DNA of 55,878 nt. It comes from Chlamydiota bacterium (GTDB lineage: Bacteria > Chlamydiota > Chlamydiia > Chlamydiales > SM23-39). This document shows positions 1,688-50,773 of the stretch, piece after piece (position 1 is the first letter of the stretch; each line of letters opens with the position of its first letter). The translations under genes and the position numbers were made by a program. The notes under the pieces are model-generated. The model was not told where the DNA came from, made no database searches, and saw nothing but the letters and a program-made list of their open reading frames with translations. The stretch lies in contig JBEHXF010000006.1 of the NCBI GenBank assembly GCA_048498835.1, positions 1 to 55,878 of the forward strand, written 5' to 3'.

Positions 1688-1697
1688 GTTTGCTATC

Positions 1698-13778: not shown

Positions 13779-13945
13779 GTTTTTTCTTTTCTAAGCTTAA
13801 ATAGAGTTTTTTGTTTTTATATTATATATTATTTACTTATTTATTGTATATTAATTGAATTTTGTGAATTTCTGTTTTAGATATTTATAAGCAATATCGG
13901 GATGGTAGTCCTAAATAGGCAAAACTGCCTTTTTAGGAGCTTTGG

Positions 13946-13970
13946 AGGGTGTTCTGTAATGAATTTTCAA
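13946..13970 (+). repeat. isolated end of the MITE-like element
   Basis: 22/25 identical to the reverse complement of 52850..52874. Confidence 0.6.
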
Positions 13971-13982
13971 GAAATTAGCTAC

Positions 13983-19709: not shown

Positions 19710-19723
19710 GACTTTCTTTCCTG

Positions 19724-21721: not shown

Positions 21722-21792
21722 GGATGCTCGTGTAAAATTGATCCTCCTCTTGATACTGGAAAAAAAGAAAAAAAGCAAAAAAATATTTAAAA

Positions 21793-30162: not shown

Positions 30163-31250
30163 TGGGTAAACAGTTCCTCGTATTGGTTGAGATTTTCTTC
30201 CAGATGAAAGGTTTTTTTTGCCCAATCTTGAGCGTTTTTGCCCATTTGCTCTGTTTTGTGGGGATTGGAAAGAAGCAATTGCATGGCTTCGAAAAAAGCT
30301 GAGGGGTCTTGAGGAGTTACTAAAAGTCCTCTTTCTCCATGACAAACAATTTCTGGCAATCCGCCGATGTTGGATGCGATGACGGGCCGTCCCATCTGCA
30401 TGGATTCTAGCGCGACCAGTCCAAACCCTTCATAAATGGAGGGCATGACAACGAGAGTAGATTGGTTGATGACTGAATAAATCGCCTCGCTATCTCTCAG
30501 CAACCCGCCTGTGAATGTGACGGAACTTCGCAAGCCCAGTTGATCGAGTCGGTGTTCTAAGTAGGGACGCTCGGCTCCTTCTCCAGCGATGATGAGACGG
30601 GCAGGAGATCCGCTCTGTTTTAATAGAGAAAACGCTTCGACTCCTGTATCGAATCCTTTTTCATAAGAGAGCCGGCCTAAGAAGAGGATAGTGGGAGGAG
30701 AAAAAGGGAGGGGAGATGGCTCTAGGGTGGGCATTTTGATGCCGTAATAGATCATTTTGATTTTATCTTTGTGATCGGGCAAATCGTTTTCCATCGTTAT
30801 TTGTCCCCATTTCGATGCGCAGCAAAGCTGATCGATCTGAGAGCAAATTTGTCTAGTGATCTGAGGAACGTCGCCATTGTAATAAGGAGAATGGATGGTG
30901 GCGACGACAGGAATAGGAAAGAGTTGGCGGAAGAGTAAAAACCCAAATGCGCTTCCATTAGCTAGGGTATTTAAATAGAGGACGTCAGGTTGAAATTCGC
31001 GCGCGATTTGGGTTAGCGATTCTTTGATGGCTCCGATCAATTTAAGATTTCTGTTTTTCAATATGGAGTCGAAATCGAAACGTTTAATCGTCGTGTTTTG
31101 ATAGATTTCTGGCTCGTTTTCGCCACCTTTTTGTGCAATGACAAGACAGCGATGGCCTCTTTTCTCCATTCCTTCAACAAATTGTAGAATTTGAGTCTCT
31201 ACGCCGCCAATGCAGGGCCAAAATCGATCAGACCAGAGCAAAATGTTCAT
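30144..31250 (-). CDS. glycosyltransferase family 4
   Basis: GGVE, GRLSYEKG, EGFGLVALE and GGLPE. Confidence 0.92.
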   Translation of the reverse strand: MNILLWSDRFWPCIGGVETQILQFVEGMEKRGHRCLVIAQKGGENEPEIYQNTTIKRFDFDSILKNRNLKLIGAIKESLTQIAREFQPDVLYLNTLANGSAFGFLLFRQLFPIPVVATIHSPYYNGDVPQITRQICSQIDQLCCASKWGQITMENDLPDHKDKIKMIYYGIKMPTLEPSPLPFSPPTILFLGRLSYEKGFDTGVEAFSLLKQSGSPARLIIAGEGAERPYLEHRLDQLGLRSSVTFTGGLLRDSEAIYSVINQSTLVVMPSIYEGFGLVALESMQMGRPVIASNIGGLPEIVCHGERGLLVTPQDPSAFFEAMQLLLSNPHKTEQMGKNAQDWAKKTFHLEENLNQYEELFTQCLQLA

Positions 31251-32328
31251 ACACTTTCTCATATTGACGTAAGTTTTTTTGTTGGGAGAAATCGAGAGCT
31301 CTGTTTCTTCCTTCTTTTCCCATTCTAATTCCCTCTTCAGGGTGCGTCAGAATTTCCTCAATTGCATGGGCGAGAGCAATTGGATCGTGAGGGGGGACTA
31401 GGAGGCCTGTTTCACCGTGTGAAACGATTTCTGGCAGTCCTCCTACGTTGGAGGCGATGACTGGTCGCTCCATTTGGAGAGCTTCCAGCGCGACGAGTCC
31501 GAATGATTCAAAATAAGAGGGGACTAAGACGATGCTTGCCTGATTGATGAAAGTGGGGATGTGGTCCATTGAGATCGAACCTACAAATTCTACCGATTCA
31601 GAGAGGTGAAGATCTTTGGTCAGCTGTCTCAATCTCGATTCTTCAAAGCCATTTCCGATGATGCGTAGACGTGCGTCAGGTCTTCTTTTTTTTAGGTGTG
31701 CTAAAGCTTGTATCGCCGTATCGAATCCCTTTTCTATGCTCAATCTGCCAACAACTAGAAGGATTGGTGGGAAAAAATGGAGAGGAGAAGGGGGTATTTT
31801 GGGGAGGGGCAATCCGTTGTAGATGAGGTGCAGCTTCTCTTTCACTTGGGGCACCAGTTTTTCTAATTCCCGAAGGACCCATTTAGATACGCAGCAAATG
31901 GCATCGACTTGGAGGCAGATTTTTTCGACTAAGGAGAAAGGGGGTTTTTGATAGTAGAGAGGAGAGTGAACCGTGAGGATGACAGGCATGTGGAATTTTC
32001 TTCTAAAAATAGAAAAGACGAAGGAACTCGTTCCGATGCATTGATTCAAGTGGACGATGTCGGGGGCAAAGTGTTGGATTAGCTTATTGAGATAAGCTTC
32101 GATTTTACTGAGTTGGTTCAGCGCCTTACTTTCGATGATTCCTTTAAAGTCGAAGCGTTTGATTGGAATATTTCGATACGTCTCTTCTTCTGGTTGTTGG
32201 GGATCCAGTTGTGCGATGACGAATGGAACGTGACCATTTTCTAGAAGACTTTCGACGAAGCGAAGGGCTTGCGTTTCAATCCCGCCGATTCGAGGCCAAA
32301 ATCCATCGGTCCAAAACAAGATTTTCAT
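31228..32328 (-). CDS. glycosyltransferase family 4
   Basis: GGIE, GRLSIEKG, ESFGLVALE and GGLPE; paralog of the next gene; ATGA overlap with the kinase gene. Confidence 0.92.
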   Translation of the reverse strand: MKILFWTDGFWPRIGGIETQALRFVESLLENGHVPFVIAQLDPQQPEEETYRNIPIKRFDFKGIIESKALNQLSKIEAYLNKLIQHFAPDIVHLNQCIGTSSFVFSIFRRKFHMPVILTVHSPLYYQKPPFSLVEKICLQVDAICCVSKWVLRELEKLVPQVKEKLHLIYNGLPLPKIPPSPLHFFPPILLVVGRLSIEKGFDTAIQALAHLKKRRPDARLRIIGNGFEESRLRQLTKDLHLSESVEFVGSISMDHIPTFINQASIVLVPSYFESFGLVALEALQMERPVIASNVGGLPEIVSHGETGLLVPPHDPIALAHAIEEILTHPEEGIRMGKEGRNRALDFSQQKNLRQYEKVYEHFALV

Positions 32329-33326
32329 AAGATTTTTTCGATCCATTTTGGAGCTTGGGTCAGATCTGCTCCTAAGTGGAGCCGATAGCAGGGGAGACTT
32401 TCGGCTACTTTTTTCAGGTGATGAAAGACGGGGGGACCGGTATGGGTGAGTTGCCATAGAGTCGAGGCCGTCAGGGGTGCGAGAACCTCATGGGAAGCGA
32501 TCGGCTCTAGCCAGCTCTCTTGATCTGGTTCAATCTGCAAGGAAAGAATTGCTTTTAAGGGTGAGCTCAACAAGATTTTTTGCGGCTGAAAGGTGTGGTG
32601 ATAGAAAAACGCCTTTTCTTTTTCGCTGCGCCAAGTGTTAGCGACATGCGCTTTGAGCTCAGGGAACCATTGAAGCGTTCGCTCTTCGATCTTGGCTGAG
32701 TTATAGATGCTGTGGACTTGAAGAGGGGACTTATTTCCGACTAAACAATAATCTTCGCCGAGGTATTGCATTCCCGCTTTCATGCAAGAGAGAGAGGTAG
32801 TTGATTTCCCTGACCCACTTTTCCCAGCCATTAATACGGCCCCCTGGGGATAGCCAACGGCTGCTGCATGGGTCAATTGGAACCCTTTTGTCTGGAGCCA
32901 CCAATGGAAGAGCAACTGGAAGGGAGAGCCTCCAATCCACCACGGTAATTTAGTTTGGATTCGATAGAGAGCGAGGTTCCTTTCTTTGTCAAAGAGATGG
33001 AGCACTTGAGTGTGAATATCGGCGACCGTGTAGAATCGGTCTGTGTTGTATCCGGTCACCTCTCCTCGCATGGCGCGTGAAACATAAGGCCAAGAGATAG
33101 GTGAATCATTCCAGATACAAATGGTGAAATCCACCGATTCTGAAGCTTCTATTCGGAGATGCTCTAAGGCAGGCCCCAAGCGATTGACTAAATCGATACT
33201 GGCAAAATGCAAGCAGATGACAAAACCCGCTAAGCGGTAATAGCTCTTGTATTCACCTTTCTCGGTGCTGGAGAGGAAATGGTGATAACATTCATCGAAG
33301 AAAAGCTGCGGCTGATCTTCTTTCAT
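32325..33326 (-). CDS. HPr-kinase-related P-loop serine kinase
   Basis: HAAAV, Walker A GKSGSGKST and YLGEDY. Confidence 0.85.
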   Translation of the reverse strand: MKEDQPQLFFDECYHHFLSSTEKGEYKSYYRLAGFVICLHFASIDLVNRLGPALEHLRIEASESVDFTICIWNDSPISWPYVSRAMRGEVTGYNTDRFYTVADIHTQVLHLFDKERNLALYRIQTKLPWWIGGSPFQLLFHWWLQTKGFQLTHAAAVGYPQGAVLMAGKSGSGKSTTSLSCMKAGMQYLGEDYCLVGNKSPLQVHSIYNSAKIEERTLQWFPELKAHVANTWRSEKEKAFFYHHTFQPQKILLSSPLKAILSLQIEPDQESWLEPIASHEVLAPLTASTLWQLTHTGPPVFHHLKKVAESLPCYRLHLGADLTQAPKWIEKIL

Positions 33327-33742
33327 CGAGTTGGGGATGTTTCGGGCCAGCCAGCTTCGGTCACTTCGTGAATCGGATCGATTAAGAGTAGATTTTGAAC
33401 ATCGGTATAAGTCTGCATTCTAGGGGGAATATAGTCTCCATCTTGGAAGATGATTTGCGGGGCCGATTCGTCAGGTACGCATAGTTCAATTAATTCCGCT
33501 TCGAGCAGCTGATCAATGAAAGAGCGAATGTCGCAAGAGACGTTTACCAAGTCCTGTTTGTAGTGCGAGGCAATGAGTAGAGTGATTTGTTGCAGAGGAA
33601 TCTGTTTTTCGATCAATTGCCAAATGTCTTTGGCAACATGGAGGAGGGCATAATAGTTGCCCGTATTGAAATCGATCACAATGACCTCTGTGTTGAGGAC
33701 TTCATAAACGACCCGGGATCGCTGAATGGAATAAGCTATCAT
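33323..33742 (-). CDS. PqqD/RRE-domain protein with a C-terminal leader/core-like extension
   Basis: EVIVIDFNTGNYYAL, IWQLI and DIRSFIDQLLEAELI (RRE pattern), followed by YIPPRMQTYTDVQNLLLIDPIHEVTEAGWP. Confidence 0.85.
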   Translation of the reverse strand: MIAYSIQRSRVVYEVLNTEVIVIDFNTGNYYALLHVAKDIWQLIEKQIPLQQITLLIASHYKQDLVNVSCDIRSFIDQLLEAELIELCVPDESAPQIIFQDGDYIPPRMQTYTDVQNLLLIDPIHEVTEAGWPETSPTR

Positions 33743-34537: not shown

Positions 34538-34649
34538 AAGTCGTTCTTTTTTAGCCGCGTAAATTTATCTTTTAATGAACTTTTGGTCAAGAAGTGTGTT
34601 GAAATAATTCTTGAATAAAGTTTTTTCTTGTCGTAGGATGTCTCTCCTT

Positions 34650-35675
34650 ATGCGCATGATCATCTTTCTTTTTATCTTAGCTGGGGTTGGATTTGCACAA
34701 GAGCGCTTGTCGTCGCCTCAGCCAATATTGATTACAGGCGTTGCTGGCTTCATCGGCTTTCATACAGCAAGAGAAGCCAATCGACGTGGCTATCAGGTAG
34801 TGGGATTTGATCATTTCAATGATTACTATGATCCGGCCCTTAAAATGCGAAGAGCGGAACTTTTGAAAAAGGAGGGAATCGAGGTCTTGACGGCCGATTT
34901 GTGTGATTTCGAGCGAATCCGAGAGATTTTTGAAGCTCGCGATTGGGTAGGAGTGATTCATTTAGCGGGGCAAGCAGGCGTTCGAGCGTCCGTTGATAGT
35001 CCACAAACTTATATTGAATCCAATATCGTCGGGAGTTGGTTCCTCTTTGAGCTCAATCGAAAGAAAAAAATTCCGATCGTATTAGCCTCTTCCTCCTCTG
35101 TCTATGGCGATCAGGATTCTGGGTCTTTTTCAGAATTTGATAGGACGGACGAGCCTCTTTCACTTTATGCAGCCACCAAAAAATCGGTGGAGATGATTGC
35201 TCACTCTTATCATGCCGTTCATGGAATGCCAATCACGTGTCTTCGCTTTTTTAGCGTTTATGGCCCTTGGGGACGTCCTGATATGGCTTATTACTCCTTT
35301 GCGCGCAATATCGCCAAGGGCGTGCCGATTACTGTCTATGGGCAGGGAGCGCTTTTAAGAGATATGACCTACGTAGATGATGTTGTGCAGGGCATTTTCC
35401 TGAGTTTAGAGCAATGTTCAGGCTATCGGATTTACAATCTCGGTTGCTCAGAACCTCGTTCTGTCGCTGAGTTAATCTTTGAATTAGAACGATCGCTTGG
35501 TATTCCAGCTCGCCAAATCTATGCTGAAAAACCGAATGCGGATGCTCTTCGCACCCATGCCGATATTTCTAAATCGGAGGCTGAATTGGGATATCACCCG
35601 ACAGTTTCGCTCCGAGAGGGAATTGAACGCTTTGTCGCTTGGTTTCGCGAATACGAACCAGAGGTGTTTCGATGA
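34650..35675 (+). CDS. NAD-dependent epimerase (UDP-glucuronate 4-epimerase-like) with signal peptide
   Basis: GVAGFIG, HLAGQAGVR, ASSSSVYG, YAATKK and VYGPWGRPDMA. Confidence 0.9.
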   Translation: MRMIIFLFILAGVGFAQERLSSPQPILITGVAGFIGFHTAREANRRGYQVVGFDHFNDYYDPALKMRRAELLKKEGIEVLTADLCDFERIREIFEARDWVGVIHLAGQAGVRASVDSPQTYIESNIVGSWFLFELNRKKKIPIVLASSSSVYGDQDSGSFSEFDRTDEPLSLYAATKKSVEMIAHSYHAVHGMPITCLRFFSVYGPWGRPDMAYYSFARNIAKGVPITVYGQGALLRDMTYVDDVVQGIFLSLEQCSGYRIYNLGCSEPRSVAELIFELERSLGIPARQIYAEKPNADALRTHADISKSEAELGYHPTVSLREGIERFVAWFREYEPEVFR

Positions 35676-36544
35676 TTCGTTATTTTTTTCTACTTATTCT
35701 TGCTTTATCGGTTTTTGGGCAAGAGCGACACTACTTGAGTATTTGTACGATTTTCCAAAATGAAGCTCCCTATTTAAAAGAATGGATTGAATATCACCGG
35801 CTGATGGGAGTTTCTCATTTTTATCTTTATAACAATCGAAGCGAAGATCACTTTCGAGAAGTATTGGCTCCTTATGTTGAGCAAGGAATTGCCGAGCTAA
35901 AAGATTGGCCCCCTTTTGCAGTCGATTTAAGCCGAGAGCAAACGCTTCAGGAATGGAGGCAGTATCAACCCGCAGCCTATAATGATTGCATACAAAGCTG
36001 CTCTTCCGATTGGTTGGCTGTGATCGATGTGGATGAGTTCATTGTTCCGATGAAACACCCGGATTTGTTGGCCTATTTATCGACATTTGATCGACAAGAA
36101 GAGATCGGGGGGATTCGGATCAATTGGCAAATTTATGGCACATCAAAACTTCCCAACATTCCAGAGGGCCAGCTTCTCATTGAAAGCTTGCTGTGGAAGG
36201 CGAAGCCCGATTATTTTAAAAACCAGATGGTCAAGTTAATCGTTCGCCCGAAAGCGATTCGGAAGATGATGGTCCATTATGCCGAATATAAAGAAGGGTA
36301 TTCTTCTTGGCCTAATTACAGTGGACGGTCGCAGCCTCCTCTCTGGATTGATGAGATCCGTATCAATCATTATTGGACCCGCGCGGAAGACTTTTTCTAT
36401 TCAGTAAAGGGCGGAAGACTCTTAAAAAAACATGAGGAGAAATACCAAGAGGTGGTGGATCGCGATGCAAAGGACTTAAATCTGATATATGACCCGCTAT
36501 TACTTCCCCTCGCTCCAAGACTTAAAGAGATCCTTCGATATTAG
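35672..36544 (+). CDS. glycosyltransferase family 92-like protein
   Basis: NEAPYLKEWIEYH, HFYLYNN, IDVDEF and INHYWTR. Confidence 0.85.
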   Translation: MIRYFFLLILALSVFGQERHYLSICTIFQNEAPYLKEWIEYHRLMGVSHFYLYNNRSEDHFREVLAPYVEQGIAELKDWPPFAVDLSREQTLQEWRQYQPAAYNDCIQSCSSDWLAVIDVDEFIVPMKHPDLLAYLSTFDRQEEIGGIRINWQIYGTSKLPNIPEGQLLIESLLWKAKPDYFKNQMVKLIVRPKAIRKMMVHYAEYKEGYSSWPNYSGRSQPPLWIDEIRINHYWTRAEDFFYSVKGGRLLKKHEEKYQEVVDRDAKDLNLIYDPLLLPLAPRLKEILRY

Positions 36545-37310
36545 CCTTGTATTGCTTGAGGTATGGTTCCCAAAGATGGGGATAATGGGCTTGAATAGCA
36601 GCATCGATATCTTGAATATAGGGCATTGGAATTTGTTTTGAGTGATAGTCGAGATCTTTCCCTTTTGAATGAGAGCCGCCGGTGCTGATGTGTTGTTCAT
36701 GATAGGAATCAAGAGTCTGCTCGCTCACCATACGCAGGTATTCTTCGTTCAAAAAATCGGGCATGATTTCTCCCAAGAAAGCGACCATTTTAGCCACTTG
36801 CTCAACGGGGTTTGCTAAGAGGTCTTCATAACGAATCAATAATCTATGTTCAGGTTCCCATTGATCATAGAGCGATAGATTGGCTATATAGTGTTTGACT
36901 ACTTCTTTATTTTGTAAAAATAGGTCTCGATATTCCTCAGCACTATTATAACTTAACACCCTTCGATGGATACATTCGCGATAATTTCTTAAAATAAATA
37001 AAAGTTTATTGCCATTTTTATTCATTCCATCTAGTTTTTCGGCGTGATGAGTTCTAAAGAGGGGTAGTTTGGAATAATCGAGAGAAATGCCAAGTCGATT
37101 ATTGGAGGTTACAGAACGATTGATTTGATCCATAAACCAAATTGGTTTATTGGTGGCTGCCTGAATGTAACAAGAGGCTAAATTTGTTCCAGATCGGGGA
37201 AAGGTGAGTAAAAATTGCTGGTTCATCTCTGCTAAGGAAACTGGATGAGGCAATGCACTGAATCCCTGGATTGTAAAGAAGAGACAGAGGATGTGTGTGA
37301 ACCGTTTCAT
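36522..37310 (-). CDS. sulfotransferase domain protein
   Basis: TFPRSGTN (5'-PSB loop), ILRNYRE and RYEDL. Confidence 0.8.
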   Translation of the reverse strand: MKRFTHILCLFFTIQGFSALPHPVSLAEMNQQFLLTFPRSGTNLASCYIQAATNKPIWFMDQINRSVTSNNRLGISLDYSKLPLFRTHHAEKLDGMNKNGNKLLFILRNYRECIHRRVLSYNSAEEYRDLFLQNKEVVKHYIANLSLYDQWEPEHRLLIRYEDLLANPVEQVAKMVAFLGEIMPDFLNEEYLRMVSEQTLDSYHEQHISTGGSHSKGKDLDYHSKQIPMPYIQDIDAAIQAHYPHLWEPYLKQYKANIEGSL

Positions 37311-37315
37311 GCAGC

Positions 37316-38167
37316 TTACCAGTTGTTATCTTGTTCATATCCTAAGTCAATCAAGGCCTGTCCTAGCCTTCTTTTGAAAGCATCCTTGTGCATCGGTTTA
37401 AAGAATGATTTCCACGCTCCTATTTTACCCTCACGGAAGGTGCTTTGGTAATCTTTAAAGTCTTTCTTTCCAAAGGGATTATCTGTGTTGCCGTATAGAT
37501 GGAGCGCTAGACTTTCAATTTCATTGTCAGAGAAAAACACACCGATGTGATTCGCGATCTTTCGCAGCGTTTGAAGTTGTTTTTCTCTCTCTCCACCTCC
37601 CTCAACGCCAATGAGGTCTTCATAGCGGCAAATCAAGATAGCCGGATTAGATGATAAATACACGGCTTGGTGAGCTACCTTTTGCAACCCGAGTTGAAGG
37701 TTGATTTTAGGGGGCTGTAATTCATATTCCTGCTCGATGACAAAGAGGAGTTGTTGATCAAAGTCTAGCTCTTTAAAGGCAGCTAATTTTTGGGGAAAAT
37801 TGGTAAACTCTGGCCAGGTTCCCTTTAAAATTTGGTGCACGATAGAGACACTCACATCGCGTAAATCGCGGATGCCGAGAATTTGTTTTACGGGCGAGTT
37901 GGAATAGTAGGTGAGGAGGCTTTCCGATAAGACGCAATGAGTATAGGGGAATTGGCTTTGGTTATACCACTCTGCAAGCGAAGGGGATGTCGTATGCCAG
38001 GCGGGAGTGAAGCCCGTCATAAAATGCAGCGTTTTGATCAGAAGATGAGACCCGGCTTTGGGAACGGTAAAGAGGGCAAAAGGTTCTGGGCGAGAGTCCT
38101 GGACTTGGTAAGCTCCAAGCTTAGCAATGAGGAAGCACAGAAGAAGGGATAGCCCCTTTTTGTTCAT
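37316..38167 (-). CDS. sulfotransferase domain protein
   Basis: TVPKAGSHL, IRDLRDVSVS, RYEDL and FREGKIGAWK. Confidence 0.85.
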   Translation of the reverse strand: MNKKGLSLLLCFLIAKLGAYQVQDSRPEPFALFTVPKAGSHLLIKTLHFMTGFTPAWHTTSPSLAEWYNQSQFPYTHCVLSESLLTYYSNSPVKQILGIRDLRDVSVSIVHQILKGTWPEFTNFPQKLAAFKELDFDQQLLFVIEQEYELQPPKINLQLGLQKVAHQAVYLSSNPAILICRYEDLIGVEGGGEREKQLQTLRKIANHIGVFFSDNEIESLALHLYGNTDNPFGKKDFKDYQSTFREGKIGAWKSFFKPMHKDAFKRRLGQALIDLGYEQDNNW

Positions 38168-39968
38168 ATTTTCTAACCCTTCTTTGATGCACCAACACGG
38201 CGCTTGTAATGAGGAGTAGCAAACTCAAAACGAAAAGGTTGAATTTTAGAACGTTGTGACAAATTTTTGAAAGAGAATTGATTTGATTTTTTAGACTGTC
38301 GGGAATTTGATAGTGCCGTACTTCTGGCAATTCTTTGAGCCAACTGTTATCCCATTGGTGATTGGCAAAGAGAAAATGGTGATCTTGAAGAGATTGTACG
38401 ATTCGCTTCGGATATTTATCGGGGAAAACAGCCGCTGCCGGAAAGATCAAGATATTTTCGGTTCCATTTAGCTCATTGATCGCGTCGTGAAAGCTATCAA
38501 ACGTCCGAATCAATGTCCGCAATAAAGAGGAAATTCGGTCGTTATACGGAAGCATCTGATCGGCATCCTCCCATCGCTCATGAATTTTCTCCATTGTATT
38601 TAGTAAGACTGGGTGTTTGGATTTAGAACCGATTAAACAGTTCGTGATAATCACCTCTTTTTTATAGAGAGGGCTTGGATGAAGTGGTTCAAGAGAGGCA
38701 AAGAGAGAAAGGTGTCCGCAAAGGGGCGAAAAGGTGCGGTAACATTCAATATCGTGGTCGACGTAGATGCCACCTTCTTGGTACAAAATCTCATAGCGAA
38801 GGAGATCGGAGCGCTCGCCCCAATTTTGTGCCTTTGGGTAAAGAGATCCGATATGAGGCATTTGTAATTCAGAAAACAGATGTTTTTCCATCCCTTCAAC
38901 GGGAACTTCTCGAGCCAAATCGTCGGTCCAAAACTTAAAAACCCAGTTGGGGTGAAATGCTTTCCAACTCAAGATGTTTTTAATCGATTTTTCAGGAAAG
39001 GGATTTTTCCCTCCCCAAATGAAATGAATGACATGCGGAATTTCAATTTTTTGGGTTGGCTGAGTTAGTTGCTGAAATGAGGTTGAAAACAATTGATGGC
39101 AGAGTTGGATGCATTGTTCGTCTTCATCACCGAGTGGTTTAGCTTTCAGTCGATTCCATTGATAAAAAAGGTTGGTTTGTTTCGCCTTCTTTATTTGGAG
39201 AGATTTGAAAGTGGGATAGAGAAGAGCGAGTGCTACGCAGAATGAACCGAATTGAACAATTCTAAAGAATTGTTTTTTTTTCATTTTTGAGAATAAAAAG
39301 ACGAGCAGCGCTCCGTTAATCAAAATTAGGCCCGCGATTGCGCCGCTCACTTTTAAGGCTCGAGAGAGCGATTTTGTCAACCTGTGACTCGTCCAGTGTT
39401 TCTCAATGAGAGCGCCTTGGATTTTGCAGTGTTCAGTTGTTAGATTAGGGTATTTTTGAAATCGCTTAAAACAAACCCCGGATTGATCAAGAGGAGAGAT
39501 TTGAGTCGTGAAAACTTGATCGGGCAGGATAAAATCGGCGGGTAAAATGTTGTTTTTTAGTCCTTTATAACGAGGCGCTGCGCCCTCAATCGAACAGAGA
39601 TCCGAGGAGATAAAATGATCGTATTGATAGGTGAGAAAATTGAGAGATTTACAAGCTAACATATCAGGGTGGATCCACACTCCCCCTTCTTGAAAGAGAA
39701 TTTCCTGTTTTAGTTCCTCCAGATCAACCTTTGCTGGATGGATTTTACAAATTTTGACATCCTTGAGAGAACATTTGGCATTGGTCCATACCTTAAATGT
39801 CCAATGAGGATGAGCCATTTGCCAGCTCTTAATCGATTCGACTTCTTCTTTAGATAGCGGTTGTGGATCGAGATGAATCCAATGGAACGTTGGAGGAATT
39901 TTTCTACTTGAAGTGCACTCTCCCTGAAAGATGAGAGCAAGTAGAAAAATAAAGATCCATTTGGTCAT
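38121..39968 (-). CDS. membrane-anchored protein with tandem GT32-like (DXD) glycosyltransferase domains
   Basis: IPPTFHWIH..SW...HP.W..K.W, and a second IPHVIHFIW..SWK..HPNW..SDLLRYEILYQEGGIYVDHD; central and C-terminal TM segments. Confidence 0.8.
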   Translation of the reverse strand: MTKWIFIFLLALIFQGECTSSRKIPPTFHWIHLDPQPLSKEEVESIKSWQMAHPHWTFKVWTNAKCSLKDVKICKIHPAKVDLEELKQEILFQEGGVWIHPDMLACKSLNFLTYQYDHFISSDLCSIEGAAPRYKGLKNNILPADFILPDQVFTTQISPLDQSGVCFKRFQKYPNLTTEHCKIQGALIEKHWTSHRLTKSLSRALKVSGAIAGLILINGALLVFLFSKMKKKQFFRIVQFGSFCVALALLYPTFKSLQIKKAKQTNLFYQWNRLKAKPLGDEDEQCIQLCHQLFSTSFQQLTQPTQKIEIPHVIHFIWGGKNPFPEKSIKNILSWKAFHPNWVFKFWTDDLAREVPVEGMEKHLFSELQMPHIGSLYPKAQNWGERSDLLRYEILYQEGGIYVDHDIECYRTFSPLCGHLSLFASLEPLHPSPLYKKEVIITNCLIGSKSKHPVLLNTMEKIHERWEDADQMLPYNDRISSLLRTLIRTFDSFHDAINELNGTENILIFPAAAVFPDKYPKRIVQSLQDHHFLFANHQWDNSWLKELPEVRHYQIPDSLKNQINSLSKICHNVLKFNLFVLSLLLLITSAVLVHQRRVRKYEQKGAIPSSVLPHC

Positions 39969-40043
39969 TTCGCTCTCTTGGCCGACGTTTGGGCGGATGT
40001 GCGAAGTGTACCGAAAATCGCGCTTAAATTTCCATCTATGAAT

Positions 40044-41051
40044 CTATTTTTTTCGATAGAAACGTAGATGACCTCCATCTTCAGGAAACTGATCGAGAAT
40101 AATCGTATTTGTGCTGTGTTTGGGAGAGATTCCTTTTTCGCCAATGTGGGCGACGCGATTCACTGTTGTTTGAAGACGGGTATAGCCGGCAAGCCAGATA
40201 GAAAAGGAGGTGATTTGATCTTGATTCATTGGAATCTCTCCATTCGGCGACCAACTTTTCACCCAGTAAATAGAATTCCACTGTGGAGAGTCAAATTGCG
40301 AAAGGATGGCTTTGCGATCATGCGATTTTGCCGTTTTTTGAATCCACTTCTGGTAGTCAAGAAAGGTTGGGCCATTTTTGGGTTTGGACCTCGCTCGTTG
40401 GTATTCTTCTCTACCCAATAAAGGGTCGATAAAGGTCTCATAAGTTGATAATAGAGGGCGAATGTCCTCCCAGACATGTCTTCGTAGCGCATAGGTGACC
40501 ATCGTCCAATGAGGAGTTACTTCGCGCACCTGAGACAAGATCGCTTGTTTTTCTTTTCGACTGAGTCGGCAATTAGACCAAAGTTGGACAGTGCCAATGT
40601 TCGTGTATCGTTCATGAGCCCAATCATCTAAGCTGAGAAGAGTTTCGAAATAGCGATTCGAGAGAAGGAGATCTTCTTCTAACACAACGATTCGATCGAA
40701 GTGACACCAATCAAAGAGAAAGCGTTTAGAATCGATATGATTTTTCGGACAGCCATAATTGATTTCTCTGGCAATCACGTGTTTGTTTTGAATGGGGGAA
40801 GCATTGATTAAAGCCCAGTTTTCAGCTTGCTCTTGGGGAGCTCCGCCATCGAGGAAAAAGAAGAATGGAAGAGTTTGCGATTCTGGATTTTGAGCAATTG
40901 AATCCAATAACTGTTTGAAGTAATGGGGACGATTATAGGCAACCACAGCAACGGCTGTCCCATGTCCTGTTTTTTTGGCATAGTCAAAATAGGCAGAGTC
41001 ATAACCGAATAAATAAACACACGCTACTAGGAACGCTATTGTAAGTCTCAT
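40044..41051 (-). CDS. GT-A fold glycosyltransferase
   Basis: VAYNRPHY, FLDG, LEEDL and RVAHIG. Confidence 0.75.
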   Translation of the reverse strand: MRLTIAFLVACVYLFGYDSAYFDYAKKTGHGTAVAVVAYNRPHYFKQLLDSIAQNPESQTLPFFFFLDGGAPQEQAENWALINASPIQNKHVIAREINYGCPKNHIDSKRFLFDWCHFDRIVVLEEDLLLSNRYFETLLSLDDWAHERYTNIGTVQLWSNCRLSRKEKQAILSQVREVTPHWTMVTYALRRHVWEDIRPLLSTYETFIDPLLGREEYQRARSKPKNGPTFLDYQKWIQKTAKSHDRKAILSQFDSPQWNSIYWVKSWSPNGEIPMNQDQITSFSIWLAGYTRLQTTVNRVAHIGEKGISPKHSTNTIILDQFPEDGGHLRFYRKK

Positions 41052-42376
41052 TGCTGCCGTCCGACGTTGATCAGTTCAAATCCTTGCTCTTTTGCGTATG
41101 CAGGAGGAAATAAGTTTTTAAAATCTGCTATTTTCCGTTCGCCGACAAGCAATGCTATTTTTGCCAAATCGAGATTTTTGATTTGAGTCGATTCATTGAG
41201 CACGATGAGACATTCAGTTGCTTTTGCGGCTTCGTAGGGGCAATTGAAGCACTGGATTTGTGGGAAAAACTTTTGTAAAAGTGGCAAGGCGTGCGGATCA
41301 TATGCGCGGATCGTGTGGCCTTGATCTAAGAGACTCTGGATAATGGAAAGAGCAGGAGCATGACGAAGATCATCTGTATTTGCCTTAAAAGCTGCACCTA
41401 AAATAGCGATTTCTTTTGGCTTTTCGCCGATAAATTGAGTCAATCGCTCGATTGTTCCCTGAAGATGTTGCTGATTGGAGGCGATAGCCTGATGCGCTAG
41501 CGTGGAAAATAGGCCGTGATCTTCAAAAATTCTCGACAAGCCCAGCGTATCTTTTGGTAGGCAGGAGCCTCCATAGCCGCAGCCCGGCTTTAAGTCTTTG
41601 GTAGGCAAGATGATCTCACTTCCCGCTATTCCGCGAGCTACCGTTTCGATATCGGCTGAGAAAATATTGCAGAGGCGGCTGAGCTCATTGATGTAGGAAA
41701 CTCGAATTGCCGAAAATCCATTCCAGCCATACTTGATTAATTCAGCTGTTTCCGGAGTTGTTTCGATCACATCGATGAGGGGATTGCCATCGATCAAAGG
41801 TTGGTATAATGCTTTAAGCGGCTCTCCCTGCTCTAAAAAGCGGGCTCCAATGACAACGGGATTGCGAGATTCAAGATCGGCAATGGCCGATCCTTCTCTC
41901 ATAAATTCGGGGTTATAAACGAGGTGTATCTGTTGATTATTTTTTAGTCGCTCTTCCAATGATGCAATAGATCCGGGTGAAACCGTACTCTTAATACAAA
42001 CCGTGCGGGGAGTCAGGGGCATTTCAGCGATTCGATCCAATACATGCGCGATCGCAGTCAAATCGCATCGCCCTTTTGCATCGGGCGGAGTTCCGACACA
42101 GATAAAGAGCAGTGGAACATTCTCGAGGGCTTTTAGCTCTGTTGTAAAGAGGACATTTGTTTGAAAGAGCTCCTGCAGGCCAGGTTCGTAAATAGGCAAA
42201 ATACCCTTTTTCAAGGAATCGATTTTCCCTTGATCAACGTCGACGCAAATGACTTGATGCCCCCACTTTGCGAGCATTCCACTCAAGACTAGGCCCACAT
42301 AGCCAGAGCCCACCACTCCAATGGTTTCGGCCTGAATGGCTACACAAAACAAAAGCCAAAAAAAGACCTTTTTCAT
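41048..42376 (-). CDS. ugd: UDP-glucose/GDP-mannose dehydrogenase with signal peptide
   Basis: GSGYVG, CVGTP, KSTV, NPEFMREG, GYGGSCLPKD and AFKANTDDLR. Confidence 0.9.
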   Translation of the reverse strand: MKKVFFWLLFCVAIQAETIGVVGSGYVGLVLSGMLAKWGHQVICVDVDQGKIDSLKKGILPIYEPGLQELFQTNVLFTTELKALENVPLLFICVGTPPDAKGRCDLTAIAHVLDRIAEMPLTPRTVCIKSTVSPGSIASLEERLKNNQQIHLVYNPEFMREGSAIADLESRNPVVIGARFLEQGEPLKALYQPLIDGNPLIDVIETTPETAELIKYGWNGFSAIRVSYINELSRLCNIFSADIETVARGIAGSEIILPTKDLKPGCGYGGSCLPKDTLGLSRIFEDHGLFSTLAHQAIASNQQHLQGTIERLTQFIGEKPKEIAILGAAFKANTDDLRHAPALSIIQSLLDQGHTIRAYDPHALPLLQKFFPQIQCFNCPYEAAKATECLIVLNESTQIKNLDLAKIALLVGERKIADFKNLFPPAYAKEQGFELINVGRQQ

Positions 42377-43356
42377 GGAGTTACCCGATAAATGGTCAAT
42401 TTATCATCGCCATAGTTGCTCACCCCCAAATACTGTCCATCTGGAGAAAAGCTAAGTCCATGTGGAAAGCTCAGTTGCGCACCAGGATTTTGAAGGACAA
42501 TAGCAGGTGTTCCAAGCGTGCCCGATAAAGGATCGAACGTCATACGGTAAACACAATCTCCATTTTGATCAGTTGTATAGACAGCCGTTTGGGCTGGGTG
42601 GATGGCAATTCCTTCGTTGCTTCCATTCAAGACCTGCATGCTCACTGGCTTTTTTCCAACATTTCCATTCGCAGAATTGAAGTGATAGACGGCCACTCTG
42701 CCTTTCATAATCGGATCGGATAAGCCGGCATTCAATCCATAGGCAATGACTAAAAACCGATTGTCCGATGTAAAGCTTAGCGCCTTCGGTTTTATATTTT
42801 TTATCGAGATCGGTCTCGACTCAACTAATCTTAGTTCCGATTCTTTTATCTGGTAAATATTCAATCTGCCCGGTTCGCCGATCGTTACGCAGGCGAAATA
42901 AGATCCGTCCGGAGAAAAGGCTCCGTCATGCACGATCTGATCAGCTTCATCGGAAGAAACAGCAAGAGGCTCTGTTGCTGTCACTTGATAAAGAGTGATG
43001 ATTTTCATCCCCGTAATGGCCAGAAGAGAGCCGTCTGGTGAGAAAATCACCCGCTCGGGATTTTTCATCCCATTCCCTTTTATTGAACAGCGGCTAATCG
43101 ATTGGATTTCTCTTCCATCGAACTTCAAAAACCAAAGCATGTGATCGAGGAGATTGACGCTAGCTAAATACGACCCATCGGGCGACCACTTAATATCGCT
43201 ACTGGTTGCGTAGCGGCTTCGATGGCCAAGTCTTAAAGGCTTACCTGTTGGATGAGTGAGATAAGAATCGGGAAAGGCATACACGCTGATGGGTTCAGAG
43301 GAGATGTTCTCCGCTTGTAAACTAAAGCTAAGAAGCGCAATGATGAGCCATTTCAT
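42373..43356 (-). CDS. secreted beta-propeller (lactonase-like) protein
   Basis: Repeated (W/F)SPDG blades, FPHGLSFSPDG and a signal peptide. Confidence 0.75.
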   Translation of the reverse strand: MKWLIIALLSFSLQAENISSEPISVYAFPDSYLTHPTGKPLRLGHRSRYATSSDIKWSPDGSYLASVNLLDHMLWFLKFDGREIQSISRCSIKGNGMKNPERVIFSPDGSLLAITGMKIITLYQVTATEPLAVSSDEADQIVHDGAFSPDGSYFACVTIGEPGRLNIYQIKESELRLVESRPISIKNIKPKALSFTSDNRFLVIAYGLNAGLSDPIMKGRVAVYHFNSANGNVGKKPVSMQVLNGSNEGIAIHPAQTAVYTTDQNGDCVYRMTFDPLSGTLGTPAIVLQNPGAQLSFPHGLSFSPDGQYLGVSNYGDDKLTIYRVTP

Positions 43357-43443
43357 AATGGGAAAGCATGTTATTGAAAAATTTGCATATATTTCAATAA
43401 ATATTTAAAAATAGTGATCGCCCTGTCAGAAAAAAATAGACCC

Positions 43444-44211
43444 ATGCGAATTTTACTTCTATTTCCTATCTTTCTCTTTGGCGTCTCTGATCAGTATGCT
43501 TTTCGCGCCGTTGATCCCATCCTGCCTATCGATCAATTGCAATTCGAAAACGACTATAGTCCAATCAATGCGCACGCAAAGGGGATGTCCAACATTTTCT
43601 ACCTAAAGCCTCTCTTGAGAATTGATCCGAATCGCTGGATCAAGCTCTACCAAGGAATGCGCTTTCAATTTCAACTCCTCTCTACCCCTCATTCCTCTAC
43701 AACTCATCAAACCACAAACCTAGGCGACACCCAATGGTTTGATCTTTTTCTTTGGACGGGCAAGTGGTGGGAAGTGGGGATTGGCCCCATGGCCATTTTC
43801 CCCACAGCTCTAAGCTCCTCCACAGGCCAAGGGAAATGGCAATTGGGTCCTGCCTTTGGTTTCTTGTTGCAACTGCATAAAACCCAGCTCGGCCTGCTCG
43901 CGCAAAATCCAATTTCCTTTGCGGGCAATTCCCATCGACCCGATCAAAATTATCTCCTCTTCCAACCCTATTTTTTTCAACACCTGGGCCGGGGATGGTA
44001 TCTCATTTCTAATCCTCAATGGACTCTCGACTGGCTTCATCACAATTACAAAATTCCACTCAATTTTGGTGCGGGAAGAGTGTTTGGGATTGGCCAGCAG
44101 ATGTTCAGCGTCAATTTACGCGCTGAGGGGATGGCTTATGAAAGCGCCCGCGGCTACGTTCCCGAATTCACCCTTCAACTATTCTTCAGCCCTCTTTTTG
44201 AAAGAGAGTGA
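43444..44211 (+). CDS. putative outer-membrane beta-barrel protein
   Basis: LGD, GIGP..FPTA...TGQGKWQLGP and PLNFGAGRVF; amphipathic strands. Confidence 0.6.
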   Translation: MRILLLFPIFLFGVSDQYAFRAVDPILPIDQLQFENDYSPINAHAKGMSNIFYLKPLLRIDPNRWIKLYQGMRFQFQLLSTPHSSTTHQTTNLGDTQWFDLFLWTGKWWEVGIGPMAIFPTALSSSTGQGKWQLGPAFGFLLQLHKTQLGLLAQNPISFAGNSHRPDQNYLLFQPYFFQHLGRGWYLISNPQWTLDWLHHNYKIPLNFGAGRVFGIGQQMFSVNLRAEGMAYESARGYVPEFTLQLFFSPLFERE

Positions 44212-44368: not shown

Positions 44369-45091
44369 ATGAAAGGTCGTTTTCTAGTAAGTTCCAATGA
44401 AGATCCAGCAGAAGGGAATGTCTATGCAGACAAGTCTTCCCTTGTCCTTGACTGGCTACTTCGAGAAGGGATTGCCAAAGAAAGCTTCTCATTGAGAGAA
44501 GTTGCTAAAGAAGCGGGCGTAAGCCTTGGTCTAGTTCAACGTGTTTTTAATATTCTAGTAATGAAAGGACTTCTGCAAGTTGAAGGAGTAAGAACTGCCA
44601 AGAGATTTTTCTTTAACAAACCAAAAGAGCTTCTAGAAAGCTGGCTAGAGCACTATAGCATCGTGAAAAAATGCAAAGTCAGAACCTATCGTTCAGCTCT
44701 TTCGGATAAGTCAGAATGGTTCAAGGCTTTAAAGAAATCTGGACTTGGAGCTGACGTGATCTTGGCGCTTCATTCAGCAGCCGAAGCACTTAAGTTTAAG
44801 AATACCAATCTGGAAGGCCTAGAATTGTATGTCCTTGACCCTTCGATTAGAGCGAAATTGGAAAATGCTTTGCAATTAGAGCCTCAAGAAAGAGGGTATG
44901 AGGTTTTGTTGATCGAACCTTACTACAAAATGTTACTCAAGCAAAATAGAAAGGATGGTAAAGAAATTGGCATTTGCCCGCTTCTCCTTACCTTTTTAGA
45001 CCTTTACCATTTCCCTCTACGAGGACAAGAGCAAGCAGAATTTATAGCAAGTCGAGCCCCAGCGCTGAAACGCATCTATAAAAAACCTTAA
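44369..45091 (+). CDS. type IV toxin-antitoxin AbiEi-like antitoxin (wHTH regulator)
   Basis: SLREVAKEAGVSLGLVQR HTH, ELLESW and LLTFLDLY..P.RGQEQAE. Confidence 0.8.
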   Translation: MKGRFLVSSNEDPAEGNVYADKSSLVLDWLLREGIAKESFSLREVAKEAGVSLGLVQRVFNILVMKGLLQVEGVRTAKRFFFNKPKELLESWLEHYSIVKKCKVRTYRSALSDKSEWFKALKKSGLGADVILALHSAAEALKFKNTNLEGLELYVLDPSIRAKLENALQLEPQERGYEVLLIEPYYKMLLKQNRKDGKEIGICPLLLTFLDLYHFPLRGQEQAEFIASRAPALKRIYKKP

Positions 45092-45097
45092 GATCAA

Positions 45098-45883
45098 ATG
45101 AAACAGATTCAAGAAGACAAGATCATTTCAGAATTTTTAAAGTCACTGGGACCATGGGGAGAGTTCGTTGTTATCGGAGGTGGTTTTGCTCTTTTTATTT
45201 ACAAGCTTTATCTCGCCGATCCCAAGCTCGAGAATCTCCCTGTTGGAACGCGAGATATTGATTCCTTAATTCCCAGAAAAGTCCCTGAGATTTCTAAAAA
45301 GAACATCGCCAAATGTCTCAATGAAGCGGGTTTTATTCATGTCTTTAAAGATGTCGATATTCCTGCGACAGAAAGTTTTGTAAAAGAGATCGATGGCGTA
45401 GAAGTAGAAATCGAATTCTTGACCGATTCAGCCACCCGCGAGGATAAGAATAAAAATGTCGTGATTGCAGGGATTGTTGCTCAGCCATTGAGCTACTTGA
45501 GCTTAAGCCTGCAAACGACAATGGCATTTCGAACCTATTCAGGAGAAGCGGGAAAAGTCGTCTCACCTGGGGCATGGATTTTTCATAAAGGACTTACTTT
45601 TACCAGGCGGAAAAGCTCGTCAAAGATGTTTAAGGATCTCTATGGGATCTGGTACGTAGCCACGCAGTTGGGAGATTTTTCTGATCAAACGCTTGCCGAG
45701 TTTGCTTTCCTCTCTAAACAGCACCCCAAATGGCAGCAGACATTTCAAAAGCAATTGTCCAACTGGATGAATCAAGCTTCTCCCACTGAATGGTCTAAAC
45801 TGGAGGCTCAAGACCCATCTGGAAAGCTAAAAAAACTAGGCTTTGAACGATCTGTGAAGATGCTTGTTACGAGCAGAATATAG
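45098..45883 (+). CDS. AbiEii-like (GSU2403-type) nucleotidyltransferase toxin
   Basis: VVIGGFA, GTRDID, IEFL and HK.....R....K..KD; 6 bp downstream of the antitoxin gene. Confidence 0.8.
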   Translation: MKQIQEDKIISEFLKSLGPWGEFVVIGGGFALFIYKLYLADPKLENLPVGTRDIDSLIPRKVPEISKKNIAKCLNEAGFIHVFKDVDIPATESFVKEIDGVEVEIEFLTDSATREDKNKNVVIAGIVAQPLSYLSLSLQTTMAFRTYSGEAGKVVSPGAWIFHKGLTFTRRKSSSKMFKDLYGIWYVATQLGDFSDQTLAEFAFLSKQHPKWQQTFQKQLSNWMNQASPTEWSKLEAQDPSGKLKKLGFERSVKMLVTSRI

Positions 45884-46144
45884 TAAAGAAGGTAACTAAG
45901 AGGATTGGTTAGTTAACTCAGTGACCGACTATTTCCTTGTGAATTAAGAAGTTCGGTGCTTTTTTTGTTTTTTCATCACTAACGCCATTTTTCGTTCCAC
46001 TGTTTGCACTAGAATCCAATCATTTACAACTAAATTCCTGCTACAACAATAGCAGCAAGCTTGGAGCAGAAAAAAAGCCTAGAGAAGACAGAACAGAAGC
46101 CGCATCGGCGCATTCCTCTGCCCGCAATTTTTGCGGTGCAAAAT

Positions 46145-46191
46145 TTGGGGCAGGCTGGACTTGAACCAGCGACCGACGGGTTATGAGTCCG
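46145..46191 (-). repeat. att direct repeat (3' 47 bp of the tRNA)
   Basis: Identical to 50583..50629. Confidence 0.95.
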
Positions 46192-46328
46192 TCTTTTTGC
46201 CTCACTGGTCATCTCTGACCATCTGTTCACATCACTATGGTACAAAGACTTAAGTGTTGTAGTCAATTGAAGAAAGTTGTTGTCAGCTGACACGAATAGG
46301 GCCTCACTGTGCCGCCAGTGTGCCTTGA

Positions 46329-46357
46329 TTGAAGGGAGCTCAAGGATCGTGTATACT
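46329..46357 (+). promoter_or_regulatory. sigma70-type promoter candidate for the island genes
   Basis: TTGAAG-N17-TATACT upstream of ATG 46425. Confidence 0.5.
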
Positions 46358-46424
46358 GTAGGCTCGTAAGCTGGATTTTCTAACTGTTCCAGTAGTTCCA
46401 TTATAAAAGAAAAAAGAGAAGAGC

Positions 46425-49343: not shown

Positions 49344-49378
49344 ATCTGGGTGCTCAATATTCAAAAGAGTCAATCAAC

Positions 49379-50698: not shown

Positions 50699-50773
50699 GG
50701 GGGGAAGCAAAAAGTGGGGGGCTTAAAGGGTGAACTTGACTTTTTGAAAAAATTGCCTATACTCTTTCCCTCT

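Follow-up and report, generated by a model that had tools for sequence, protein, structure and literature searches.

Export-type leaders on nucleotide-sugar, glycosyltransferase and sulfotransferase enzymes of a Chlamydiota bacterium point to a possible host-fed glycan pathway outside the cytoplasm

The stretch of Chlamydiota DNA analyzed here (the window; 55,878 nucleotides), which is an entire 55.9-kb contig of a 1.97-Mb genome (88 contigs, 97% complete), contains ten consecutive genes at 34611-44211, every one of which begins with a short, positively charged, hydrophobic leader. These genes include a UDP-glucose 6-dehydrogenase (UGDH), a nucleotide-sugar epimerase, several glycosyltransferases and sulfotransferases. 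An earlier note on this DNA had proposed that such normally cytoplasmic sugar and sulfate enzymes carry export-like leaders, and our analysis bore this out for the ten consecutive genes and for eight further genes of the window. By the textbook rule, bacterial glycan synthesis from nucleotide sugars and sulfation dependent on 3'-phosphoadenylylsulfate (PAPS) are cytoplasmic. We propose, with about an even chance of being right, that Sec-type leaders carry the enzymes of nucleotide-sugar formation, glycosyl transfer and sulfation across the inner membrane, where they would form a host-fed pathway in the periplasm and/or the lumen of the vacuole (inclusion).

Organization of the leader-bearing genes

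The lactonase-like propeller, UGDH, GT-A glycosyltransferase, two-domain GT32 and two Sulfotransfer_1 genes make up a tightly packed minus-strand operon, on which the plus-strand genes for an epimerase of the short-chain dehydrogenase/reductase (SDR) type and a GT92 glycosyltransferase converge, and a family-less protein on the plus strand diverges from the operon start. Pfam scans confirmed the open reading frames (ORFs) and enzyme families as first described, and the two catalytic motifs said to be intact, GSCLPKD and YAATK, are both present. The genes of the block were assigned as follows.

43414-44211, plus strand: leader-bearing protein without a Pfam or NCBIfam family, divergent from the operon; likely start 43444
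42373-43356, minus strand: seven-bladed lactonase-like beta-propeller with leader (Pfam Lactonase, E 3.1e-10), first gene of the minus-strand operon
41048-42376, minus strand: UGDH with a 16-residue leader directly ahead of the Rossmann strand, MKKVFFWLLFCVAIQAETIGVVGSGYVG; cleavage predicted after residue 16
40044-41051, minus strand: GT-A glycosyltransferase with leader and a GnT-I/MGAT2-like fold; its start overlaps the UGDH stop
38121-39968, minus strand: two-domain GT32 of 615 amino acids (Pfam Gly_transf_sug, E 1.1e-16)
37316-38167, minus strand: sulfotransferase with leader (Sulfotransfer_1, PF00685; 26.5 bits, cut-off 22); leader-bearing paralog at C15:17636-18481
36522-37310, minus strand: sulfotransferase with leader (Sulfotransfer_1, PF00685; 42 bits, cut-off 22); leader-bearing paralog at C44:8298-9164
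35639-36544, plus strand: GT92 glycosyltransferase with leader (Pfam Glyco_transf_92, PF01697; 110.8 bits, cut-off 23); likely start 35672
34611-35675, plus strand: NAD-dependent SDR epimerase with leader (Pfam Epimerase, E 4e-51); start 34611, 34638 or 34653

The protein at 41048-42376 contains the domains PF03721 (162 bits), PF00984 (80.5 bits) and PF03720 (80.7 bits), scores 348 bits with the NCBIfam NDP-sugDHase model TIGR03026 (cut-off 189.8) and carries the catalytic cysteine motif GGSCLPKD; by these features it is a UGDH, with predicted substrate specificity. The epimerase has the GxxGxxG and YxxxK (YAATK) motifs, and its closest solved relatives are 5u4q, 6zl6 and MoeE5 (6kv9), with no NCBIfam equivalog above its cut-off. 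The 6zl6 family and MoeE5 are presumably UDP-glucuronate 4-epimerases, and the window protein is probably one as well. The AlphaFold2 model of the GT-A protein (pLDDT 91.7) matched best in Foldseek to 1foa (GnT-I), 5ggf (POMGNT1) and 5vcs (MGAT2), with E values of 1.7e-9 to 5e-8, a TM score of ~0.5 and 11-17% identity, suggesting a GT-A enzyme of GnT-I/MGAT2-like fold; we did not file it as a GT13 or GT16 member by sequence, as PF05060 gave 18.6 bits, below the cut-off of 27. A hydropathy scan of the GT32 protein gave the order leader, first GT32-like domain, internal hydrophobic hairpin, second GT32 (DXD) domain and C-terminal transmembrane segment. The sulfotransferase at 37316-38167 has no solved-structure relative at E 0.01 or better. 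For the family-less protein at 43414-44211, a feature-based atlas search led to 'Transporter' clusters, one of them with PF13557 on 13% of its members, and this lead raises the possibility of an outer-membrane channel.

The eight leader-bearing glycan genes elsewhere in the window, which encode three GH130-like proteins, a pyruvyltransferase, a Methyltransf_24 protein, a GT25 and two LicD proteins, were assigned as follows.

665-1723, minus strand: GH130-like five-bladed propeller with leader (Pfam Glyco_hydro_130, 23.7 bits, under the cut-off of 26); 49% identical to the protein at 1698-2822
1698-2822, minus strand: GH130-like five-bladed propeller with leader (Pfam Glyco_hydro_130, 36.9 bits, cut-off 26)
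2819-3706, minus strand: polysaccharide pyruvyl transferase with leader (Pfam PS_pyruv_trans, 58.7 bits); leader-bearing paralog at C60:1391-2206
50714-51949, plus strand: third GH130-like paralog, with no Pfam match; it aligns over 332 residues with the protein at 665-1723 and shares 26.5% identity with it
51957-52655, plus strand: methyltransferase dependent on S-adenosylmethionine (SAM), with leader (Pfam Methyltransf_24, 63.1 bits); leader-bearing paralogs on C19 and C7
52912-53889, minus strand: GT25 glycosyltransferase with leader (Pfam Glyco_transf_25, 39 bits); likely start 53835
53922-54665, plus strand, and 54654-55628, minus strand: LicD-family genes with hydrophobic N-termini (Pfam LicD, 73.9 and 69.7 bits)

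Leader calls and start codons

Leaders were called with a home-made rule combining hydropathy and charge. This rule flagged all 10 of the consecutive genes, and 481 of the 1778 ORFs in the genome when any start within the first 60 codons was allowed, or 290 of 1778 when only the longest start was taken. At a rate of 0.27, the chance of ten calls in ten genes is ~2e-6, assuming an independence that operon genes do not have; the background rate is itself inflated, because the rule also flags the Rossmann N-termini of leaderless UGDH paralogs. Base composition is not the cause of the leaders, because they are missing from the neighboring genes for a GT2, two GT4 proteins and a methyltransferase (27745-32457), which thus provide an internal negative control.

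The position of the UGDH start is fixed by its overlap with the upstream gene, as its ATG shares the sequence ATGA with the TGA stop of the propeller gene. Later in-frame start codons in UGDH either retain part of the leader or delete the first Rossmann strand, which the next GTGs also delete, and 86 of 86 leaderless UGDH homologs retain 5-6 residues ahead of the GxGYVG motif. The possibility raised in the earlier note that the true starts lie downstream of the hydrophobic segments is thus disfavored by the ATGA coupling, by the leader abutting the Rossmann strand and by the conservation of leaders across homologs.

Conservation of the leaders across homologs

The strongest evidence for the leaders comes from homologs. 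Four unrelated enzyme families share the same pattern, in which near homologs carry a leader and distant homologs begin directly at the domain. Among the 120 best UGDH homologs, 28 of the 116 full-length proteins have a hydrophobic extension of 11-88 residues ahead of GxGYVG, and 86 begin at the strand; in the nearest homologs the entire extension is just 15-16 residues, with no linker before the fold. For GT92, a leader was found in 105 of the 120 best homologs. GT-A proteins carried one in 29 of 41 cases among the nearest 45 representatives versus 8 of 90 among the next 105, a group in which 36 lack any extension and another 29 possess a long soluble N-terminal domain. In the adenylylsulfate (APS) kinase encoded elsewhere in the genome, described below, the leader is present in 21 of the 25 nearest homologs, and remoter homologs have the same two domains without it. 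The leaders are conserved in kind, that is, in charge, hydrophobicity and length, rather than in sequence, as is usual in the evolution of signal peptides; that the sequence is free to diverge while these properties are kept over 40-60% identity indicates selection.

In an unrooted tree of UGDH built with the leaders trimmed, from which five fragments (P0011, P0016, P0026, P0045 and P0082) were omitted, the 86 leaderless proteins lie on one side of a single branch and the leader-bearing proteins fill the remainder. In the midpoint-rooted tree the leader-bearing proteins do not form one clade: 22 of them group with P0018 in a clade, and the remaining 6 make up a grade. Support for the leader having been gained or lost just once comes from the unrooted split only. 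The leader-bearing UGDH of the window shares no more than 38% identity with the ordinary UGDHs from 40 relatives. Leader-bearing UGDHs contain a mean of 10.8 cysteines, versus 5.9 in leaderless ones, with clade-specific conserved cysteines at 93, 104, (106), 127 and 389 (window numbering) where leaderless proteins have Ala, Ala, Leu, Val and Ala; this is compatible with, and only suggestive of, an oxidizing compartment.

Type of leader and membrane orientation

The net charge of the n-region was +1 or higher in 26 of 28 UGDH and 90 of 99 GT92 leaders, and was +1 or +2 in all 9 window proteins from GT92 to the outer-membrane-protein-like protein. It was 0 in the two LicDs, in the protein at 665-1723 and in the epimerase at its shortest start. 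The uncharged stretch that follows had a median length of 14 residues in UGDH and 16 in GT92, reached 19 or more in 5 of 28 UGDH and 20 of 99 GT92 leaders, and spanned 11-16 residues in 8 of the 9 core proteins, the other being a sulfotransferase (ST1) with 24 residues, polar ones included. A stable membrane span needs more than 11-16 residues. Of the 17 window leaders examined, 15 had a charge behind the stretch that did not exceed the charge ahead of it, and an acidic residue usually came next. A small-residue -3/-1 site was present in 28 of 28 UGDH and 98 of 99 GT92 leaders, which is weak evidence given the permissive rule used. In UGDH, an uncleaved span would bury the first strand of the fold in the membrane, because the extension of 15-16 residues enters the fold without a linker.

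As a rule of thumb, the positive-inside rule applied to these charges predicts that the catalytic domains are exported rather than cytoplasmic. Leader length and charge therefore fit cleavable Sec signals rather than cytoplasm-facing anchors, with cleavage itself predicted. Anchoring, which the earlier note had offered as its alternative, is disfavored by charge and stretch length; exceptions are the GH130-like protein at 50714-51949, which looks like a reverse anchor, the LicD leaders and the ambiguous internal segments of GT32. Other targeting signals were sought by eye and rejected: there is no lipobox ([LVI][ASTVI][GAS]C) at the proper position for a lipoprotein, no RR motif for Tat, the N-termini are too strongly hydrophobic for type 3 signals, and stretches of 11-16 residues differ from the 40-60 residues of an Inc-type bilobed signal.

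Leaderless paralogs and a leader-bearing APS kinase

The genome also encodes leaderless versions of the same enzymes, with UGDH paralogs on C54 and C1 and an epimerase paralog at C16:10309-11274 that is 46% identical to the window epimerase. Such pairs of leader-bearing and leaderless paralogs in one genome offer a clean experimental handle. Other families carry the leader throughout, including 3 of 3 GT92 copies, both pyruvyltransferases, all four Methyltransf_24 proteins and 6 of 6 sulfotransferases found, which belong to three Pfam families (four Sulfotransfer_1, one Sulfotransfer_2 and one Sulfotransfer_4). The sole APS kinase of the genome (C15:15725-16693, corresponding to L180:5226-6194, minus strand) has its leader directly before the P-loop and an NMNAT-like nucleotidyltransferase domain behind the kinase, and its gene adjoins that of a leader-bearing sulfotransferase. 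From its domains, this fusion may be a compact PAPS synthase, or else a maker of NAD+. Leaderless relatives of the fusion and relatives of reversed domain order occur in other phyla, some of them named Omnitrophota and Woesearchaeota.

Distribution in Chlamydiota and Dependentiae

Leader-bearing UGDH was found in 4 of 400 Chlamydiota genomes, which belong to four families. In all 3 genomes other than the present one, a leader-bearing propeller, UGDH and glycosyltransferase occur together, the last being a GT-A homolog in two genomes and a GT2 in one. At one of these loci (L097:11475-12526, G341:C4), the GT-A homolog beside the leader-bearing UGDH is split into two ORFs of 94 and 256 amino acids, which may reflect a frameshift or a pseudogene. 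A leader-bearing APS kinase is present in 8 of 201 genomes, 6 of which are among the 23 genomes of one family, including a metagenome-assembled genome labeled Simkaniaceae. GT92 is common, occurring in 76 of the 200 Chlamydiota genomes searched versus 0 of 14 control genomes; one Chlamydiota family had GT92 in 0 of 28 genomes and a leader-bearing APS kinase in 0 of 29.

Beyond Chlamydiota, a contig of candidate division TM6 (Dependentiae; LBTY01000011.1, L099:6484-16757) contains eight consecutive plus-strand genes, all with a leader, in the order two proteins of no known family, GT2, UGDH, GT2, GT4, one protein of no known family and an AMP-forming acetyl-CoA synthetase. A pattern scan of representative genomes derived from the UGDH alignment returned, among the matches listed, generic UGDHs and no member of the leader clade, and the sole close relative that emerged when the TM6 protein was used instead was its own locus.

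A possible host-fed pathway outside the cytoplasm

The genome encodes at least four full NTT/TLC nucleotide importers which, together with a cytochrome o oxidase, a two-partner secretion pair and a MOMP-like porin, are consistent with an environmental chlamydia as the source organism. The periplasm is where NTT importers pick up their substrates, so host ATP and NAD+ must be arriving there, and the NTT4 of Protochlamydia imports NAD(H) (PMC3831814). The premise of the earlier note that NAD+ is not normally available in the periplasm consequently does not apply, and neither would such a premise for ATP: its first interpretation stands as regards leaders that are real, conserved and of export type, and is corrected as regards these cofactors. 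C. trachomatis brings host UDP-glucose into its vacuole, where glycogen is synthesized in the lumen by secreted enzymes (PMC4829429). A supply of cofactors outside the cytoplasm is therefore plausible.

In the proposed pathway, exported UGDH would oxidize host-derived UDP-glucose to UDP-glucuronate at the expense of NAD+, and the exported epimerase would turn part of this product into UDP-galacturonate. The GnT-I-like GT-A enzyme, GT92, GT32, GT25 and LicD proteins would lengthen a glycan attached to an acceptor at the surface or in the lumen. The sulfotransferases would add sulfate to this glycan from PAPS, made in the same compartment from host ATP by the leader-bearing APS-kinase fusion. 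The glycan would also be methylated and pyruvylated, and the cytoplasm would retain the leaderless UGDH and epimerase for conventional envelope synthesis. Judged from gene content, the product would be a sulfated uronic-acid glycan.

Several observations weigh against this pathway. The leader rule is deliberately permissive and over-calls, and the starts of homologs are automatic gene calls on metagenome contigs. A positive n-region is missing from the two LicD leaders, which makes these two calls weaker, and also from the epimerase if its shortest start is used. The GH130-like protein at 50714-51949 has an uncharged stretch of 24 residues with a charge of +1 before and +4 after it, and is probably a reverse anchor that keeps its domain in the cytoplasm. 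The internal membrane segments of GT32 have positive charges on both flanks, leaving its topology ambiguous. The genome search that the earlier note had suggested for nucleotide-sugar and PAPS transporters found none above Pfam cut-offs (PF04142, best 24.2 bits with a cut-off of 27; PF03151, no match), and a Pfam search of the genome likewise found no canonical ATP sulfurylase above cut-offs, so that APS would have to be made by the C-terminal, NMNAT-like domain of the APS kinase, in a role that is unproven. The cluster has no evident acceptor, flippase or ligase. UGDH needs two NAD+ for each turnover and contains a catalytic cysteine, and we know of no extracytoplasmic UGDH.

Comparison with known systems

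The closest precedent is the synthesis of glycogen in the C. trachomatis inclusion (Gehre et al. 2016, PMC4829429), in which carbohydrate enzymes of cytoplasmic type likewise act outside the bacterial cytoplasm and host UDP-glucose is brought into the vacuole; this is experimental there and predicted from genes here. Host-fed extracytoplasmic carbohydrate metabolism is thus already known in chlamydiae, and the leader-bearing set would be a variant of it. The two cases differ in secretion route (type 3 in the glycogen case versus Sec-type leaders here), in product (glycogen versus the uronic-acid, sulfated, methylated and pyruvylated heteroglycan suggested by the present gene set) and in scope, as enzymes that make donors or consume cofactors (UGDH, epimerase and APS kinase) are included here but not in the glycogen pathway.

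The 'Golgi-like' character proposed in the earlier note found support in the presence of GT92, GT32, GT25, LicD and Sulfotransfer_1 proteins and in the Golgi enzymes that are the best structural matches of the GT-A protein. As in the eukaryotic Golgi and endoplasmic reticulum, GT92, GT32, GT25, LicD/fukutin-like, Sulfotransfer_1/2 and GnT-I/MGAT2-like folds stand behind an N-terminal hydrophobic targeting segment, and plants have NAD-bound SDR nucleotide-sugar enzymes that face the secretory lumen. Unlike in the Golgi, the genes form a bacterial operon with overlapping genes, and the leaders are short and cleavable-looking, in contrast to Golgi type II anchors of 17-22 residues; UGDH and APS kinase are leader-bearing here but cytosolic in eukaryotes, and no SLC35-type transporter scored above cut-offs. 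Bacterial capsule and O-antigen loci similarly cluster UGDH, a uronate epimerase, several glycosyltransferases and tailoring enzymes. However, their enzymes are cytoplasmic and depend on Wzx/Wzy or ABC export, whereas nearly every enzyme here has an export-type leader and the cluster contains no such exporter.

The dependentian Chromulinavorax destructans (Deeg et al. 2019, PMC6561590) offers a further parallel as an obligate intracellular energy parasite with ATP import and many predicted signal sequences. The main text of that report discusses proteases, nucleases and ankyrin proteins, contains the stem 'glycos' 0 times and describes no exported nucleotide-sugar pathway. Our literature search, which was incomplete, found no description of leader-bearing nucleotide-sugar, PAPS or UGDH enzymes in Chlamydiae or Dependentiae. 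A broader reading, which we hold tentatively and think somewhat more likely to be wrong than right, is that some obligate intracellular bacteria, belonging to two phyla (Chlamydiota and Dependentiae) or more, relocated an entire line for donor formation and glycan assembly to a host-fed extracytoplasmic space, which would in effect be the bacterial equivalent of a Golgi lumen, supplied with stolen ATP, NAD+, SAM and UDP-glucose; under the same tentative reading, this line would include UGDH, the uronate epimerase, a PAPS-forming kinase, glycosyltransferases of 'Golgi' families, sulfotransferases and methyltransferases.

The interest of the leader pattern lies in its being conserved, spanning two phyla and being directly testable. 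If the enzymes do act outside the cytoplasm, the textbook rule of cytoplasmic synthesis would fail for energy parasites, and the periplasm or vacuole would be a metabolically active, host-fed compartment, in line with the proposal of Gehre et al. (2016) for glycogen in C. trachomatis. Chlamydial production of sulfated, uronic-acid (glycosaminoglycan-like) material would then have a genetic basis as well. The report of glycosaminoglycan-like material from 2000, as cited in PMC2229832, concerned C. trachomatis, and this link serves as context rather than explanation, as there is no sign of these genes in the family with GT92 in 0 of 28 genomes.

Alternative explanations

The main rival, which we nevertheless consider unlikely, is that the proteins are secreted effectors that pass through Sec and then type II secretion or outer-membrane vesicles, and remodel host molecules in the host cytosol or at the vacuole membrane rather than build a bacterial glycan. 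UDP-sugars, PAPS, SAM, NAD+, ATP and CoA are plentiful at those sites, and the genome encodes two secretins, of which one of 776 amino acids could be type II. The following enzymes of the genome have leaders as well; all except the AdoMet decarboxylase belong to a hand-picked set of 20 further leader-bearing ORFs, which also includes two FAD enzymes and an Fe/Mn superoxide dismutase.

C15:10928-11365: AdoMet decarboxylase with leader
C20:21038-21628: acireductone dioxygenase with leader
C41:3006-3671: GNAT acetyltransferase with leader
C9:32090-32755: chloramphenicol-phosphotransferase (CPT)-like kinase with leader
C60:725-1387: 2-oxoglutarate (2OG)-Fe(II) oxygenase with leader
C18:22763-23821: GT90 with leader
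C17:10656-11480: GINT1-like protein with leader

The GNAT protein, acireductone dioxygenase, AdoMet decarboxylase, CPT-like kinase and FAD enzymes need ordinary cytosolic metabolites, and the GT90, GINT1-like and 2OG-oxygenase genes resemble enzymes of the host secretory pathway, all of which favors effectors. So does the leader-bearing acetyl-CoA synthetase of the Dependentiae locus, an enzyme that needs ATP and CoA. Moreover, the Sec-dependent chlamydial HtrA has been reported in the host cytosol (PMC3107777), and 44% of the coding sequences in a cultured dependentian have predicted signal sequences (PMC6561590). Nonetheless, UGDH, the epimerase and APS kinase would be redundant in a host cytosol that already has UDP-glucuronate and PAPS, and the possible outer-membrane channel gene beside the operon (a lead only) and the membrane segments of GT32 point to a cell-bound pathway.

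A weaker rival, in our judgment quite unlikely, is that the leaders are uncleaved anchors that hold the catalytic domains at the cytoplasmic face of the membrane, within a conventional cytoplasmic complex for glycan assembly. Bacterial glycan enzymes often act at that face, where every cofactor is at hand; the paralog at 50714-51949 has the charge pattern of an anchor, and about one-fifth of GT92 leaders (20/99) have an uncharged stretch of 19 residues or more. Against this, the positive-inside rule predicts the opposite orientation for most UGDH and GT92 leaders, most stretches are 11-16 residues long, and the UGDH extension meets its Rossmann strand without a linker. The leaderless UGDH and epimerase paralogs would be hard to explain if both sets were cytoplasmic, and a Pfam scan of 23 window ORFs found no initiating phosphoglycosyl transferase, flippase, polymerase or ABC exporter in the cluster.

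It is very improbable, and largely refuted, that the leaders are miscalled starts or inherited eukaryotic signal anchors without a present role: although protein starts in metagenomes are called automatically and the GT92, GT32, GT25, LicD, sulfotransferase and GnT-like families are typical of eukaryotic secretory pathways, the bacterial-type UGDH and APS kinase, cytosolic in eukaryotes, have the same kind of leader, the retained leader properties indicate selection, the UGDH start is fixed by its ATGA coupling and the leaderless neighbors exclude a compositional effect.

Other genes of the window

Between the leader-bearing groups, the leaderless cluster at 27745-33742 encodes the methyltransferase, a 317-amino-acid protein, the GT2, the two GT4 proteins, an HPr-kinase-like P-loop protein (32325-33326) and a PqqD-type peptide-binding protein (33323-33742), the last scoring 39.6 bits with the NCBIfam model lasso_PqqD, under its cut-off. 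On the other side of the block, an AbiEi-like antitoxin and an NTP_transf_8 nucleotidyltransferase form a pair (44369-45883), followed by proteins of 972 and 300 amino acids (to 50281); the region 44369-50281 may be a defense or mobile island that splits the glycan genes. Two paralogous proteins of 668 and 453 amino acids (11772-15344) have similar N-terminal regions and repetitive tails rich in proline and glutamine. The two-partner secretion pair (15591-21778), assigned by eye from the translations, consists of a TpsB-like transporter of 684 amino acids, which contains a region of acidic repeats, and a filamentous-hemagglutinin-like passenger of 1400 amino acids.

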